From a virus (taxonomy: Duplodnaviria; Heunggongvirae; Uroviricota; Caudoviricetes), in IMG/VR virus record IMGVR_UViG_2579779149_000003: DNA of 22,140 nt; one strand, given 5' to 3'. This document shows, one piece after another, positions 2,896 through 17,275 of the stretch. The position numbers and the translations under genes were made by a program. The notes under the pieces are model-generated. The model saw nothing but the letters and a program-made list of their open reading frames with translations. It made no database searches and had not been told where the DNA came from. The number at the start of each line of letters is the position of its first letter. Position 1 is the stretch's first letter.

Positions 2896-6576
<3,681 letters not shown>

Positions 6577-6602
<26 letters not shown>

Positions 6603-7122
6603 TCAGCAACCCCGGTATCAGTTCATCCAGCGCGGCTGCTTTGTTCATGGCTTTGATGATATCCCGTTTCAGGAAATCAACATGTCGGTTTTCCAGTTCC
6701 GGAAAACGCCGCTGCACCGACAGGGGGATCCCGTCGAGAATACTGGCAATTTCACCTGCGATCCGCGACAGCACGAAAGTACAGAATGCGGTTTCCACCA
6801 CTTCAGCTGAGTCTCTGGCATTCTTCAGTTCCTGTGCGTCGGCCTGCGCACGCGTAAGTCGATGGCGTTCGTACTCAATAGTCCCTGGCTGGAGATCTGC
6901 CTCGCTGGCCTGGCGCAGTTCTTCAACCTCCCGGCGCAGCTTTTCGTTCTCAATTTCAGCATCCCTTTCGGCATACCATTTTATAACGGCGGCAGAGTCA
7001 TAAAGCACCTCATTACCCTTGCCACCGCCTCGCAGAACGGGCATTCCCTGTTCCTGCCAGTTCTGAATGGTACGGATACTCGCACCGAAAATGTCAGCCA
7101 GCTGCTTTTTGTTGACTTCCAT
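6577..7122 (-). CDS. Nu1: Terminase small subunit Nu1 (181 aa)
   Basis: 181-aa ORF MEVNKKQLADIFGASIRTIQNWQEQGMPVLRGGGKGNEVLYDS..., recognised as lambda gpNu1; immediately downstream of cos. Confidence 0.96.
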
Positions 7123-7434: not shown

Positions 7435-7459
7435 TAAAAAAGCCCCGCTACTGCGAGGC
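7435..7459 (-). terminator. Rho-independent terminator downstream of the peptidase gene
   Basis: Minus-strand RNA GCCUCGC-AGUA-GCGGGGC (one G-U pair) followed by six U; sits 24 nt after the stop at 7483. Confidence 0.45.
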
Positions 7460-7482
7460 TAATATGGTGTGTAAATAGGTTC

Positions 7483-8385
7483 TTACGATTGCATATTCCA
7501 AATCATAGCATTCCCATTATGGTTTTCTATGATCTTTGCGATCGGGGCTCCACCAAACGAGTGCATGTAACTGTGATGTATGGTCAAAACCAAATCCTGG
7601 AGGACTTGATCACTTTCCAGTTCTGTAACATTCAATCCAATTTTCTGAGCTTTATCGAAATGGATATGTCTCGAATGAGTGTAAGTTGTATGATGATTGT
7701 TCAGCTCTGAGCATACATGAGTTGCTTTTGTTTCTGACTCCGGATCATTTGCAAACATACCCGTCATAAGCCAGTGCTTGACAATCTCATTCGCCCATTG
7801 GATAGCTTTTTCACACTCTCCGATAATAGTGGGGTTGAGTTTCTGAAGTATAAACTGCCACATTTGCACAGCTGCTGGATTGTTAAAAATTTCCGCCTGA
7901 GCTCTATTCCATTCCTCAATAATAGCATGTGTAGAAAATCCATTAAACTGAGGGTCAATCGGGCCAATATTGGACTGTTTACCCATTATGATTTCATTAG
8001 CACAGCACGCAAGCATGGTACCACATGACATTGAAATCATAGGAACGATAGCTCTGATATCAGTCCCAAACTTAGAACGCAGATAATGACCAATAGACTC
8101 TAAGGCAGCGATATCACCTCCAGGGGTATGTAATATTAAATCCACCCCCTTTGTAACATCTAAACCATTAATAACAGTCATTAATCCATTTTTATCATCA
8201 TCTGTCATCAGGGTGAGATGTCGGACTTCTGCACCACCATGTTGCAACCATCCGGAATAATATGTAATTACATTTCTTCCAGTGTGATTAGACAGTTGTA
8301 ATAAATATTTACGGCGAACCTCATCCATCGGACTCTTCTGGGCGAGAGCCGTCATCTCGCCCAGTACGTCACTCCAATTAGGCAT
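7483..8385 (-). CDS. ClpP-fold serine peptidase (S49/SppA-like or SDH-type), 300 aa, AT-rich accessory gene
   Basis: 300-aa ORF with LILHTPGGDIAALESIGHYL and MISMSCGTMLACCAN motifs, resembling the TPGG and active-site serine regions of S49/ClpP-fold peptidases (compare LLDMDTPGG in gpC in this window). No SD; the ATG lies 5 nt after the upstream stop, implying translational coupling. Family assignment is from motif recognition only. Confidence 0.7.
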   Translation of the reverse strand: MPNWSDVLGEMTALAQKSPMDEVRRKYLLQLSNHTGRNVITYYSGWLQHGGAEVRHLTLMTDDDKNGLMTVINGLDVTKGVDLILHTPGGDIAALESIGHYLRSKFGTDIRAIVPMISMSCGTMLACCANEIIMGKQSNIGPIDPQFNGFSTHAIIEEWNRAQAEIFNNPAAVQMWQFILQKLNPTIIGECEKAIQWANEIVKHWLMTGMFANDPESETKATHVCSELNNHHTTYTHSRHIHFDKAQKIGLNVTELESDQVLQDLVLTIHHSYMHSFGGAPIAKIIENHNGNAMIWNMQS

Positions 8386-8390
8386 GGTGT

Positions 8391-8591
8391 TTAGTAGGTG
8401 TAAAGTTGATGATGTGTACTTTGATTTTGCTTAGCCTGCGCTGCAGTACCTTGAGAGTACCAAACGCCGGTACTACCACTCGTACTCGTTTGTTGAGCAA
8501 GTACCCTGGAAGCAAAGTTGTTAACAGTTTCTCCAGTCATCATCTCTGCAGGTTTAATGCCATAGAAATCGTAGAACTCAGCCGGGCTCAT
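8391..8591 (-). CDS. Hypothetical 66-aa protein, first gene of the peptidase operon
   Basis: ORF MSPAEFYDFYGIKPAEMMTGETVNNFASRVLAQQTSTSGSTGVWYSQGTAAQAKQNQSTHHQLYTY with a good SD (AGGAG about 8 nt upstream of the ATG at 8591); its stop is 5 nt before the peptidase ATG. No family recognised. Confidence 0.55.
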   Translation of the reverse strand: MSPAEFYDFYGIKPAEMMTGETVNNFASRVLAQQTSTSGSTGVWYSQGTAAQAKQNQSTHHQLYTY

Positions 8592-8615
8592 AGTGGAATC
8601 TCCTATTGTAGTGCT

Positions 8616-8653
8616 ACATATAGTGTTTTTTTAACACTGAAAACACTATATGT
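8616..8653. promoter_or_regulatory. Nested palindromic operator-like element in the promoter region of the small-ORF/peptidase operon
   Basis: ACATATAGTGTT (8616..8627) and its exact reverse complement AACACTATATGT (8642..8653), with an internal palindrome AGTGTT-TTTTT-AACACT (8622..8638), 25-60 bp upstream of the ATG at 8591. Confidence 0.4.
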
Positions 8654-8676
8654 GCCATTTACTCAATTTCTAAATG

Positions 8677-8700
8677 TGCAAAAAGCCTCAAATGAGGCTT
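8677..8700 (-). terminator. Terminator-like hairpin upstream of the small-ORF/peptidase operon
   Basis: Perfect inverted repeat AGCCTC-AAAT-GAGGCT (8684..8699); on the minus-strand RNA it is followed by UUUUU. Separates the operon from upstream minus-strand transcription. Confidence 0.4.
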
Positions 8701-8853
8701 AAAAAAAATGAAAAGCTGCTTTCTATGGCTGAACTATAGCGAGTTCCCCACATTTTTTACAACCACAAAATGCTCTTTTACGGCAAAACAATTCTTAGAT
8801 AAAACACACAACCATGTCGCACTTACACACATTCGCTTACAAAAGTATTAGTT

Positions 8854-9069
8854 TCAATACATTCTACAGTTAGCCTGCACTGATTTGTTATGCGCCAATA
8901 TGTCCCGCTTCGTCTGCTTATCCTGCACGGTAATATCGTGCTCAGTGAGGTAGATGATGTTCACCCAGTCACAAGCCGTGTCTGTTACTGCAGTTTTTTC
9001 GGGTAAATCTTTCGCGCAACTCACGGTCAACATCGCCATCAGGAAGATGATTAACAATCTGCTGTACAT
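8854..9069 (-). CDS. Putative o-spanin-like secreted or lipoprotein (71 aa), overlapping the 3' end of the preceding gene in another frame
   Basis: MYSRLLIIFLMAMLTVSCAKDLPEKTAV... has a signal-peptide-like N-terminus with Cys18 (non-canonical lipobox TVSC). It starts inside and extends beyond the 8969..9247 ORF, the overlapped Rz/Rz1-type architecture. Confidence 0.35.
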   Translation of the reverse strand: MYSRLLIIFLMAMLTVSCAKDLPEKTAVTDTACDWVNIIYLTEHDITVQDKQTKRDILAHNKSVQANCRMY

Positions 9070-9247
9070 CCCAGGCTCCTTTTGTTGTTTCTACCCGGCG
9101 TATTGCAACGACTTCAGTAGCAGTTGCACGTTCTTTAGTGCGTTGCTGGTTCGCTTTTGTCTCAGCGATACTTGCACCGCGAGATTTACCCAGACCAAAA
9201 GCACCGGCTATTACTGCCAGCAAGGCAGCAATCAGGCCGACAATCAT
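8969..9247 (-). CDS. Putative i-spanin-like membrane protein (92 aa from the internal ATG at 9247)
   Basis: From ATG 9247: MIVGLIAALLAVIAGAFGLGKSRGASIAETKANQQRTKERATATEVV..., an N-terminal TM helix followed by a charged domain. Starts 20 nt after the stop of the endolysin remnant. The longer 166-aa version of this ORF was rejected. Confidence 0.35.
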   Translation of the reverse strand: MIVGLIAALLAVIAGAFGLGKSRGASIAETKANQQRTKERATATEVVAIRRVETTKGAWDVQQIVNHLPDGDVDRELRERFTRKNCSNRHGL

Positions 9248-9269
9248 TTCAATTCCCACATAGACCTCA

Positions 9270-9440
9270 CACCAATGCGGCTTTAGCTTTGACGTAACGT
9301 TCACGGCGGTCTTTAATGCCGTTTTTCCCACCATTAATAATCTGCGTGACGCGCTCCAGATCTTCCGGGTAAAGGAGACAACCACGTAACGTGAAGAACC
9401 AAGCAGCAGAACGGGGAGCATGAGAGACAAACCCGCGAAC
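9270..9440 (-). pseudogene. 3' remnant of a GH19 (chitinase-like) endolysin gene
   Basis: The minus-strand frame ending at stop 9267..9269 translates ...SAAWFFTLRGCLLYPEDLERVTQIINGGKNGIKDRRERYVKAKAALV, matching the conserved C-terminal IINGG-NG-DR-RY motif of GH19 endolysins. The frame upstream has no credible N-terminal catalytic domain and is closed by a stop near 9500. Confidence 0.5.
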
Positions 9441-9677
9441 CATAAACGCGGTAAAAACCCTGTGTGCATCGTTTTTAATTATTCCCGGACACTCCCGCAG
9501 AGAAGTTCCCCGTCAGGGCTGTGGACATAGTTAATCCGGGAATACAATGACGATTCATCGCACCTGACATACATTAATAAATATTAACAATATGAAATTT
9601 CAACTCATTGTTTAGGGTTTGTTTAATTTTCTACACATACGATTCTGCGAACTTCAAAAAGCATCGGGAATAACACC

Positions 9678-9971
9678 ATGAAAAAAATGCTACTCGCTAC
9701 TGCGCTGGCCCTGCTTATTACAGGATGTGCTCAACAGACGTTTACTGTTCAAAACAAACCGGCAGCAGTAGCACCAAAGGAAACCATCACCCATCATTTC
9801 TTCGTTTCGGGAATTGGACAGGAGAAAACTGTTGATGCAGCCAAAATTTGTGGCGGCGCAGAAAATGTTGTTAAAACAGAAACCCAGCAAACATTCGTAA
9901 ATGGATTTCTCGGTTTTATTACTTTAGGCATTTATACTCCACTGGAAGCGCGTGTGTATTGCTCACAATAA
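9678..9971 (+). CDS. bor: Bor lipoprotein (serum-resistance lysogenic-conversion protein, 97 aa)
   Basis: MKKMLLATALALLITGCAQQTFTVQNKPAAVAPKETITHHFFVSGIGQ... matches lambda Bor; opposite strand to the lysis genes as in lambda. Confidence 0.95.
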   Translation: MKKMLLATALALLITGCAQQTFTVQNKPAAVAPKETITHHFFVSGIGQEKTVDAAKICGGAENVVKTETQQTFVNGFLGFITLGIYTPLEARVYCSQ

Positions 9972-10002: not shown

Positions 10003-10479
10003 CTATCTGCACTGCTCATTAATATACTTCTGGGTTCCTTCCAGTTGTTTTTGCATAGTGATCAGCCTCTCTCTGAGGGTGAAATAATCCCGTTCAGCGG
10101 TGTCTGCCAGTCGGGGGCTGGTTGCATTATCCACGCCGGAGGCGGTGGTGGCTTCACGCACTGACTGACAGACTGCTTTGATGTGCAACCGACGACGACC
10201 AGCGGCAACATCAGCGCGCAGAGTTTCATTTTCAGCTTTCGCATTGGCTAATTCTCTCGAGTACTTTGCATCGAGTGCAGCAACATCACGCTGACGCTGC
10301 TGCATGTCAGCGATGGTGGCGATCGACTGCTTCAGCTCACTGACTTTTTTATCACGCTGTTCTTTGTAGGCGATGGCGTTATCACGGTAATGATTGACCG
10401 CCCACGACAGGCAGACGATGATGCAGATAACCAAAGCATAAATAATCGCGGCGACTCTGCTCACTGCTCTATCCCCCAA
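10003..10479 (-). CDS. Rz: i-spanin Rz (lambda-like)
   Basis: 158-aa ORF with N-terminal TM segment [25 protein letters not shown] and C-terminus ...[23 protein letters not shown], as in lambda Rz. Confidence 0.9.
10062..10244 (-). CDS. Rz1: o-spanin Rz1 lipoprotein, embedded in Rz in the +1 frame
   Basis: [60 protein letters not shown]: lipobox VVGC and proline-rich tail, lambda Rz1-like. Confidence 0.9.
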
Positions 10480-10994
10480 CAGGCTAATGCGCTTTCCTGG
10501 TCACGACGAATAACCTGTCCATAGCAGTTATTTGAACGTATGCGGCAATCGCGCCCACCATCTTTTATCCACCAGCGAATCGCCTCGCATGCGCCCTTAC
10601 GATCACCGGCATTCAGCCGCTTATAAAACGTCGACGGGAAACACTTACCGGGGCCAATGTTATAGGGACAGAATGACGCTATACCCGCTTTTTGTGGTTC
10701 GGTCAGTGGTACTTTAATATTGCGCTCCACCCATGCCAGCGCCTTATCACGCTCAATGGCGTTGACCTGGTCGCATTTTTCCTTCGACAGTTTCATACCG
10801 GGAAAAACGGGTTTTCCATCCACCATCGTGGCACCCCGACAGATGGTCCAGATGCCGGACCCATCGCGGTATGCCGTTGTGTGGTTACCTTCTTTTTCAT
10901 CCAGAAACTGGTCGAGAATATCAGGCGCGGGCGCACCGACGGCAATCAGTGCCAGAACGGCAGCCGACAGGCCGTATCTGATTTTTGCGTTCAT
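10461..10994 (-). CDS. R: SAR endolysin (T4-lysozyme-type muramidase, RrrQ/R21-like, 177 aa)
   Basis: N-terminal signal-anchor-release-like segment [17 protein letters not shown] followed by the catalytic region [20 protein letters not shown]; resembles the E. coli Qin-prophage lysozyme RrrQ as I recall it. Confidence 0.88.
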
Positions 10995-11057
10995 GGATAT
11001 TTATCAGGATTTATCGGTTTCTGCCCACGGACAGGTTTATCTGTTCCGGTCAGTGAC

Positions 11058-11408
11058 TTAAGGTTGTGATTCCGGAGGAGTCTTCAGAGAACCAGTAATT
11101 CTTCCCGGTAGCTTTCCTTTGTAGGTTATCCATACATTCTGCGCCTCTAAAATTACGGGGCGCTTTTCCGGCGACTGCTCATCCCCTTCACATAACCCGG
11201 CAGCAACATCCAGGAAGACCTGTCTGATGCTCATTCTGGCTGCTGCCTCATAAAACTCCAGCGCGGCACCTTCAACACGGTCCAGCGAGATGTCCAGGTC
11301 AAAAATTTCACCGTCAAAGCGTTTTTTGTCCCGTAACGCTAAAGTTACCGTAACTTTATTCTCAAAATTGCGGATCCCTTTCACAATCAGTTCATAGTTT
11401 TGAGTCAT
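11058..11408 (-). CDS. Hypothetical protein between holin and endolysin (YdfR-like, possibly DUF1327), 116 aa
   Basis: Soluble 116-aa ORF in the position occupied by ydfR in Qin-type lysis cassettes; family assignment from gene position and vague recollection only. Confidence 0.5.
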   Translation of the reverse strand: MTQNYELIVKGIRNFENKVTVTLALRDKKRFDGEIFDLDISLDRVEGAALEFYEAAARMSIRQVFLDVAAGLCEGDEQSPEKRPVILEAQNVWITYKGKLPGRITGSLKTPPESQP

Positions 11409-11412
11409 TGAA

Positions 11413-11628
11413 TTACTCTCCCCGTGCAGCCTTACGCTTGTCTTCTCTGATTTTGAAGTACAGATTTGTCAGATAAGTCAGGAAGCCCAGAACCAGACTC
11501 CCAAGTACACCAATCGCAGCCCACTGTGACGGACTGACCTGATCAAGCCACTGTAAAAACCAGTAGCCAGCACTGCCTGCGGAGGTGCCGTAGGCAATGC
11601 CCGTTGAAATTTTGTCCATGGATTTCAT
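11413..11628 (-). CDS. S: Class II pinholin (phage 21 S21 / EssQ-like, 71 aa, dual-start motif MKSM)
   Basis: [71 protein letters not shown] matches the S21 pinholin: two TM segments and a Met-Lys-Ser-Met dual start. Confidence 0.9.
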
Positions 11629-11920: not shown

Positions 11921-11995
<75 letters not shown>

Positions 11996-11998
11996 ATA

Positions 11999-12074
<76 letters not shown>

Positions 12075-12076
12075 AC

Positions 12077-12153
12077 TGGACCGCCACCGGGGACTCGAAC
12101 CTCGCACACTCAACTTAAAGGGTTGACGCTCTTTCCTGATGAGCTAGTGGCGG
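12077..12153 (-). tRNA. tRNA-like gene with atypical anticodon loop CCUUUAA (anticodon UUU by position, C at position 33); identity uncertain
   Basis: Acceptor CCGCCAC/GUGGCGG, D-arm GCUC...GAGC, anticodon stem UCAAC/GUUGA, T-arm CGAGG-UUCGAGU-CCCCG (one mismatch), encoded CCA. Packed 2 nt and 1 nt from neighbouring tRNAs. Confidence 0.45.
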
Positions 12154-12154
12154 T

Positions 12155-12230
12155 TGGTGGCCCTTGCTGGATTTGAACCAGCGACCTGGCGATTATGAGT
12201 CGCTCGCTCTCACCACTGAGCTAAAGGGCC
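12155..12230 (-). tRNA. ileZ: tRNA with anticodon CAU (IleX/IleZ-like tRNA-Ile2, or Met)
   Basis: Reverse complement GGCCCUUUAGCUCAGUGGUGAGAGCGAGCGACUCAUAAUCGCCAGGUCGCUGGUUCAAAUCCAGCAAGGGCCACCA closely resembles E. coli tRNA-Ile2 (ileX) and the ileZ gene of lambdoid prophages; T-arm GCUGG/CCAGC is perfect. Confidence 0.8.
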
Positions 12231-16908: not shown

Positions 16909-17064
16909 TTACTCCTCAGGTTCGTAAGCTGTGAAGACAGCGACCTCCGTCTGGCCGGTTCGGATTCGTACCTCGCAGAGGTCTTTCCTCGTTACCAGTG
17001 CCGTCACAATGACGGTTAAACAGATGACGATCAGGGCGATTAACATCGCCTTTTGCTGCTTCAT
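16909..17064 (-). CDS. hokD: Hok-family type I toxin (HokD/RelF-like, 51 aa)
   Basis: From the internal ATG at 17064: MKQQKAMLIALIVICLTVIVTALVTRKDLCEVRIRTGQTEVAVFTAYEPEE, recognised as HokD/RelF. The in-frame upstream extension (ORF from 17121) is probably leader sequence. Confidence 0.85.
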   Translation of the reverse strand: MKQQKAMLIALIVICLTVIVTALVTRKDLCEVRIRTGQTEVAVFTAYEPEE

Positions 17065-17275
17065 AGCCTGCTTCTCCTTGCCTTTCGGCACGTAAGAGGC
17101 TAACCTAGATTTGCCGTTCATAGATTGAGCCTCAGATTAATGTTAAGCGTCTTGCAGGACGCGTAATGTTAACTGGGGCTTTTCTCTATCTGCCTTTGGT
17201 GTTCATGCCTGAGACAGATAGCCTCAAGCACCCGCAGCCATTCTACTTAACTCCCGTTACCTCGCCAATATAAAA

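Follow-up and report, generated by a model that had tools for sequence, protein, structure and literature searches.

The stretch of DNA analysed here (the window, 22,140 nucleotides at its full length) represents a lambdoid E. coli prophage whose late genes lie on the minus strand; the features are collected in Table 1. A near-identical locus is annotated in E. coli EC14, where the second spanin pair adjoins a truncated GH19 endolysin pseudogene. This pair is a relic from the lysis module of another phage. The element studied here is a palindrome located in the 262-nt gap upstream of an ORF of 66 aa, which is followed by the gene of a ClpP-fold serine peptidase. A preliminary description of the locus had placed the palindrome directly upstream of these two minus-strand genes, hereafter the cassette, and this arrangement was confirmed from the sequence. 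The genes downstream of the element are the 66-aa ORF and the PF01972 peptidase, with no ribonucleotide reductase (RNR) or nrdR gene, and no RNR protein was found among the tested proteins of the window.

Table 1. Features of the prophage locus, in window coordinates.
Feature	Position	Strand	Details
Terminase large subunit	4677-6602		
Nu1-like terminase small subunit	6577-7122		
Terminator-like hairpin past the peptidase gene	7441-7460	-	marks the cassette end
SDH-type ClpP-fold serine peptidase, 300 aa (cassette gene 2)	7483-8385	-	PF01972; PHROG 11747
Small ORF, 66 aa (cassette gene 1)	8391-8591	-	PHROG 25714; ATG 8591-8589
Shine-Dalgarno sequence GGAG	8600-8603	-	8 nt before the small-ORF ATG; AGGAG conserved in the alignment
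NrdR-type box 2	8611-8626	-	ACACTATATGTAGCAC; all six key positions; 17.0 bits; 19 nt before the ATG
Inverted repeat	8616-8653		each arm combines the inner part of one box with 4 linker bases
16-bp linker	8627-8642	-	TTTCAGTGTTAAAAAA; holds the middle AACACT/AGTGTT copy of the preliminary description
Linker, minus-strand reading	8642-8627	-	tttcagtgttaaaaaa
NrdR-type box 1 (distal from the ATG)	8643-8658	-	ATGGCACATATAGTGT; A6, A8, T9, T11, G13; 9.3 bits
Candidate sigma-70 promoter P2	8645-8674	-	-35 TTTAGA (8674-8669), 18-bp spacer, -10 TATAGT (8650-8645)
Intrinsic-terminator-like hairpin	8680-8700	-	AAGCCTCA-TT-TGAGGCTT, then T-run; 22 nt upstream of box 1
Sigma-70-like promoter P1	8733-8762	-	TTGTAA-18-TATAGT; upstream of the terminator; conserved
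Second spanin pair (Rz1-like, 71 aa; Rz-like, 166 aa)	8854-9469		upstream of the cassette
bor	9678-9971		
Rz, lysozyme, DUF1327 protein, holin	10003-11628		
Four tRNA genes (Gly-TCC, Thr-TGT, Lys-TTT, Met-CAT)	11921-12230	-	upstream of the lysis genes
sok antitoxin RNA of a hok/sok-type toxin-antitoxin locus	17059-17233	-	Rfam RF01794, 110 bits
Regulator-like prophage genes (YdaT-like and others)	20.5-21.7 kb		about 12 kb from the cassette

Both cassette proteins belong to PHROG families without functional annotation. The small protein was found in only nine clusters of a large protein collection, and in all enteric variants it is conserved with a length of 64-70 aa. The C-terminal sequence of enteric small proteins is (L/M)Y(T/S)Y. 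The N-terminus of the peptidase, MPNW, is conserved, which supports the start giving a protein of 300 aa. An ORF of approximately 60-70 aa precedes the peptidase gene in many relatives, including metagenomic ones at 36-50% identity (L171-L250); thus, the gene pair is old and widespread. Among complete E. coli genomes the cassette is rare: 7 contain it at approximately 100% identity and 42 contain it as a variant of 78-81% identity. In enteric prophages, the pair occurs after the spanin genes, before the terminase, or between Q and the holin, and these varied positions point to the behaviour of a mobile accessory cassette. The lambdoid prophages that host it differ in their Q proteins and lysis modules. 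In the locus L014, where the cassette lies between the Q antiterminator and holin genes, it is flanked by near-identical terminators (3533-3556 and 5000-5023, AAAACCTCGC..GCGGGGTTTT), an arrangement resembling an insertion or duplication scar.

The PADLOC defence-system models matched neither of the two cassette proteins and none of the neighbouring ORFs, and a PDB sequence search returned just a marginal ClpP match. No DNA-binding domain was detected in the two cassette proteins. The cassette was not found by megablast in a phage collection. A literature search on the peptidase family found nothing relevant, and one with the arm sequences returned unrelated primers only.

The preliminary description had reported a 12-nt inverted repeat, ACATATAGTGTT at 8616-8627 and AACACTATATGT at 8642-8653, enclosing an inner palindrome, AGTGTT (8622-8627)-TTTTT-AACACT (8633-8638). 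Both are present in the sequence, and a repeat finder gave even longer perfect arms of 14 nt (8616-8629 and 8640-8653) with 10 nt between them. Three AACACT-type half-sites had been counted within the element, and the whole had been taken for the binding site of a dimeric regulator of the operon. Additional copies of the motif were looked for in the window. No further exact copy of the 12-mer was found; the only other match has 2 mismatches, and 15 of 100 shuffles gave equal or more matches. The AACACT hexamer, with 12 copies in the window against 9.8 expected, shows no enrichment either. The number of half-sites therefore has no statistical weight on its own.

The element was compared with the published binding site of NrdR. 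This site consists of two partially palindromic 16-bp boxes separated by an unconserved linker of 15-16 bp; positions C4, A6, A8, T9, T11 and G13 of a box are conserved, C4 and G13 being critical, and at least 63% of the bases between positions 4 and 13 are A/T (PMC13584703, PMC12176259). NrdR loaded with ATP and dATP requires both boxes and binds as a tetramer across them (PMC13584703, PMC12176259). The usual C4-G13 spacing is 8 bp and a spacing of 9 bp is tolerated in one box; one engineered box with 7 bp lost NrdR binding, but the construct carried other base changes too (PMC13584703). In rare cases the linker measures 26-27 bp; its length is conserved, unlike its sequence.

On the minus strand, 11 of the 12 key NrdR positions are present at 8611-8658. 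The only miss is C4 of box 1, where G4/C5 is found instead, so that the C-to-G distance is 7 bp. Between positions 4 and 13, the A/T share of box 1 is 75% and that of box 2 is 88%, both above the 63% threshold. Sequence inspection revealed no extra boxes 15-16 bp on either side of the pair. It should be noted that the count of key positions alone is weak, since 11% of shuffled windows also reach 11/12. A pair matrix was built solely from six E. coli boxes experimentally bound by NrdR. With this matrix, 8611-8658 scores 26.2 bits and the runner-up pair in the 22-kb window 9.6 bits, while the best pairs of 100 shuffles have a mean of 9.0 (sd 2.3) and a maximum of 15.2 bits. The NrdR-type pair score of the element is far above chance. 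Even with C4 lacking, box 1 alone reaches 9.3 bits with the E. coli matrix. The E. coli operators from which the matrix was built score 30-33 bits. Box 2 shares 12 of its 16 bases with box 1 of E. coli nrdDG (GCACTATATATAGACT); box 1 has the same 3' half (TATAGTGT) as box 1 of E. coli nrdAB (PMC13584703).

To follow the element through relatives of the cassette, we compared 23 distinct upstream variants with a peptidase identity of 62-100%. In the first alignments, the centre of the palindrome was wholly different in relatives, and the outer sequences GGCACATATAGT and CACTATATGTAG(C) were kept, with conservation continuing beyond the ends of the arms. The units conserved are two 16-bp boxes that reach 5 nt past the arms on each outer side. 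An ungapped alignment of 14 variants accordingly consists of two conserved 16-column blocks. All six key positions of box 2, and A6, A8, T9, T11 and G13 of box 1, are invariant in all 23 variants. C4 of box 1 is present in 13 of them; the other 10, i.e., the window and its nine closest relatives (the window clade), have G4 C5. Outside the window clade, all 13 variants have 12/12 key positions. Pairwise identity at the key positions is 1.00 inside each clade, compared with 0.72-0.74 (window clade) and 0.41-0.49 (other clade) at the non-key box positions. For the linker it is 0.33-0.39 across the variants, which is little above the level for unrelated sequence. As to length, 14 variants have a linker of 16 bp, 8 have one of 15 bp and a single variant has one of 17 bp.

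Several variants are informative with respect to the architecture of the element. In L151, L156, L158 and L159 the arm sequences stand in swapped order, yet 12/12 NrdR positions are present. The variant L163 has the worst pairing between its boxes and still shows 12/12 NrdR positions; its two sides form separate palindromes, CACAACATGTTGTG and CACTATATATAGTG, whose centres are 32 bp apart. It was from the swapped-order variants, the variants that do not fold between the arms and the two separate palindromes of L163 that the NrdR architecture was recognised. A wider collection, assembled from contigs of the small-protein clusters and from a peptidase-alignment scan of viral and metagenome collections, comprised 86 distinct upstream regions. 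No NrdR pair was found upstream of the distant peptidase relatives (below 60% identity) in 59 loci, and the site is not regarded as ancient.

Based on the above comparison, the palindrome is probably the core of a predicted NrdR operator (8611-8658, minus strand) that is maintained by selection before the two-gene cassette. The alignments show this putative operator evolving under exactly the published NrdR constraints across relatives. The window copy was classed as a deviant copy of the operator because the 13 more distant cassette variants are canonical (12/12). It may bind weakly, since the critical C4 is missing and the 7-bp construct lost binding; we consider efficient binding of the G4 copy by NrdR to be somewhat less probable than the operator assignment itself.

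The claim of an operator for the operon is thus retained in the light of box conservation in the 23 variants, and its nested three-half-site dimer anatomy is not, the centre being unconserved. At the homologous loci the outer boxes occur in 23 of 23 variants and the inner palindrome is absent. Both this palindrome and the middle AACACT, proposed as a functional half-site, fall into the 16-bp linker; judged from the divergence of this linker, neither the nested palindrome nor the third half-site is more than an incidental part of it. The cassette contains no regulator gene, in agreement with the preliminary description, and the factor, encoded elsewhere, is read here as a host factor. The preliminary interpretation as a whole is partly supported by the sequence data, and control by a trans-acting host factor belongs to its supported part.

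The -10 hexamer of the candidate promoter P2 occupies positions 9-14 of box 1. Of the 23 variants, 13 retain a -10-like hexamer there, and 10 with intact boxes have lost it. P2 is most likely the operon promoter, but with the hexamer retained in no more than 13 variants this assignment is weak. In the RNR promoters of P. aeruginosa, NrdR box 1 overlaps the -10 element, and the NrdR sites overlap the RNA polymerase site (PMC4409342). Two other candidates were rejected. A third promoter, with a -35 TTAAAA in the linker and a -10 TACAAT after box 2, would start transcription in or after the Shine-Dalgarno sequence, and its hexamers are unconserved. For a sigma-54 promoter (GGCAC), sequence inspection found no GC element at the correct distance.

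Farther upstream, P1 and the terminator hairpin, approximately 30 nt apart, form a unit (8678-8762) whose distance from the boxes is constant in almost all enteric variants. Both are kept across the enteric clade even where their sequence differs. Nineteen of the 23 variants have the hairpin with its T-run, the last T of which lies 20 or 22 nt from box 1, and the distance from the P1 -10 to box 1 is 79-82 or 69-72 nt across the variants. The equivalent hairpin of L014 was detected as a terminator. The P1-leader unit gave no Rfam match. Complementarity of the P1 leader to the operon leader was no better than in shuffles, and none of it was conserved. The P1/terminator unit may insulate the NrdR-controlled promoter, or it may yield a short RNA or leader. 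In view of the fixed spacing of 20-22 nt between the upstream terminator and box 1, one may speculate that an NrdR roadblock might hold RNA polymerase at the terminator and in this way link P1 termination to the nucleotide pool.

To see where the same pattern occurs in other genomes, the arm pattern of the window was scanned in one genome per species, giving 99 raw matches. Most of these either arose by chance or belong to palindromic repeats that occur in many copies in a few metagenome-assembled genomes (MAGs). Because any match to the pattern automatically has 10 of the 12 key positions, evidence was drawn from the gene context alone. Nine matches were tested, all of them non-repeat, with 12/12 key positions and a large ORF within 600 nt. 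The neighbouring gene was nrdR, nrdA or nrdB (one each), nrdD (two) or nrdJ (two) in seven of the nine.

Some other matches deserve mention. In the Erwinia sp. JUb26 chromosome (L112:2551-2589), an NrdR-like pair with 11/12 key positions (ACACCACATATAGTGC, 16-bp linker, GCACTATATGTATTAT) lies 35 nt upstream of an unrelated 83-aa gene, which is a possible further non-RNR target. A strong -35 TTGTCA is found within its linker and a -10 TATTAT just past its box 2. A SAR116 MAG (L061:1611-1647) has a topoisomerase gene of the gyrB/parE type that is preceded, at a distance of 3 nt, by an NrdR-like pair whose linker measures 14 bp. The matches L033, L051, L054, L058, L059, L072, L078, L096, L105 and L108 are repeats from one Peptostreptococcales MAG, and a part of L036-L111 represents multi-copy palindromic repeats from Bacillota MAGs. 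These repeat families, present in at least 10 copies in each genome, show the same arm pattern around centres of 15 or 16 bp. A role as NrdR sites is improbable for them, and they could represent mobile or REP-like repeats.

As one other explanation, the arms might form a stem-loop in the 5' UTR of the operon mRNA, acting in stability, processing or protein binding, either instead of or alongside an operator. The RNA of the window folds as a 14-bp hairpin, and the whole leader has a z-score of -3.3. At the four pair positions not determined by the logo, 82 of 92 cells are complementary across the variants, compared with 71.6 +/- 2.3 in shuffles, and G.U cells number 14 on the sense strand versus 2 on the antisense strand. 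In the inter-box helix, 95% of the cells are paired and 2 pairs are changed on both sides; its covariation score was reached by 0 of 500 shuffles, but the relatedness of the sequences inflates such tests. Moreover, 5 of the 9 pairs never vary and, being palindromic logo positions, are complementary automatically. Template switching at quasi-palindromes could equally keep the arms alike.

The pattern of conservation also argues against a pure RNA stem, which would not freeze the primary sequence at C4, A6, A8, T9, T11 and G13, nor would it keep 5 nt past the stem or a 'loop' length of 15-16 nt. In L163, L176 and L165, no hairpin folds between the boxes, and the NrdR boxes are still perfect. If P2 is the promoter, the transcript would start within the element and the stem could not form. 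Rfam returned no bacterial family, with spurious microRNA models appearing only below threshold. The hairpin had been favoured as the main explanation on account of apparently compensatory double changes, from A-U to G-C, and single A-to-G changes giving G.U, and was demoted when all variants were seen to fit two independent NrdR boxes; we now regard it as unlikely. However, the complementarity between the two boxes goes beyond what the NrdR logo demands, a feature that the native E. coli RNR operators do not share. The NrdR model alone leaves this excess unexplained, which leaves room for an added RNA-level or symmetry-related constraint.

The reading of the preliminary description, an operator for some other symmetric regulator of prophage, cassette or host origin with half-sites ACATATAGT/ACTATATGT, draws on the perfect inverted repeat directly upstream of the operon and on the conservation of the arms in close relatives. 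The swapped order of half-sites in L151, L156, L158 and L159 does not suit a ACATATAGT-N20-ACTATATGT dimer and fits independent palindromic 16-bp boxes, and the centres of the half-sites are 29 bp apart. A phage-specific repressor is unlikely because the cassette moves among prophages with different Q proteins and lysis modules. The lack of a detectable DNA-binding domain in the cassette proteins speaks against a regulator of its own, and the window holds no second copy of the element. Taken together, such a regulator seems very improbable. Among known operators, those of the LexA, CRP, OxyR, Fur and MerR types were rejected because of misfitting spacing or bases.

Finally, it is scarcely credible that the element has no regulatory role and is a chance or mutational quasi-palindrome over an ordinary -10 hexamer: AT-rich palindromes do resemble -10 elements, AACACT is unenriched, and a few unrelated MAGs carry multi-copy palindromic repeats with the same arm pattern, but the logo positions stay invariant in 23 variants at 62-100% peptidase identity while the linker diverges almost fully, the matrix score is far above shuffles, and a -10 hexamer would account for one arm only and is lost in 10 variants with intact boxes.

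Returning to the predicted NrdR operator, we suggest the following scheme for its action. Host NrdR loaded with ATP and dATP would bind both boxes as a tetramer and occlude the promoter whose -10 TATAGT lies inside box 1, so that the cassette would be off while dATP is plentiful. A fall in dATP relative to ATP, for example under replication stress or heavy phage DNA synthesis, would release NrdR and allow expression of the cassette. In the lysogen, the terminator 22 nt upstream would shield the promoter from upstream transcription, whereas during lytic growth the Q-antiterminated late transcription would read through it. It is conceivable, though rather doubtful, that a mobile prophage cassette recruited NrdR, the dATP/ATP sensor of the host, as a switch and that an accessory function would be triggered by a fall of the dNTP pool. 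Possibly, this function is defence or lysis timing.

NrdR is described as a repressor specific to RNR genes (PMC9110341, PMC13584703), and a conserved site on a prophage accessory cassette is therefore unusual. Literature searches on NrdR together with prophage found nothing relevant. If the prediction is true, the NrdR regulon would extend to mobile elements, which suggests that prophages would read the host dNTP pool to time their accessory genes. The element would also offer an experimental handle on the PHROG 25714 and PHROG 11747 (PF01972) families, and its natural variants (G4/C5 in box 1, near-perfect symmetry between the boxes) would be useful for the rules of NrdR recognition.

Compared with known systems, the element is closest in design to the E. 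coli nrdAB, nrdHIEF and nrdDG operators. It shares with them the two 16-bp partial palindromes, a linker of 15-16 bp with free sequence, the key positions, the AT-rich core, and a site that, with P2 as the candidate promoter, would lie at or just downstream of a -10-like element. The E. coli operators control RNR genes, whereas the window element precedes a prophage small protein and a ClpP-like peptidase. The G4/C5 of box 1, boxes that are near-perfect inverted copies of each other, and a terminator at a fixed distance of 20-22 nt upstream set the window element apart from them.

The cassette itself can be compared with the 'morons' of lambdoid phages, accessory genes, bor among them, that are each equipped with a promoter and a terminator. 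Like a moron, it is autonomous, has a terminator on either side in the interval from the lysis genes to cos/terminase, and is found at varied positions in phages with different neighbours. Unlike morons, it carries a predicted operator for a host metabolic sensor, which appears to be kept as the cassette moves.

In the NrdR literature examined, the only non-RNR target found was topA of Pseudomonas aeruginosa (PMC4409342). Like the cassette, topA is a non-RNR gene; it has a predicted NrdR box in its promoter and nrdR-dependent expression (PMC4409342). It differs in having a single box, in being activated and not repressed, and in being a chromosomal, replication-related gene (PMC4409342). Against this background, the element of the window is probably best described as a variant NrdR operator, this time on a non-RNR prophage cassette.
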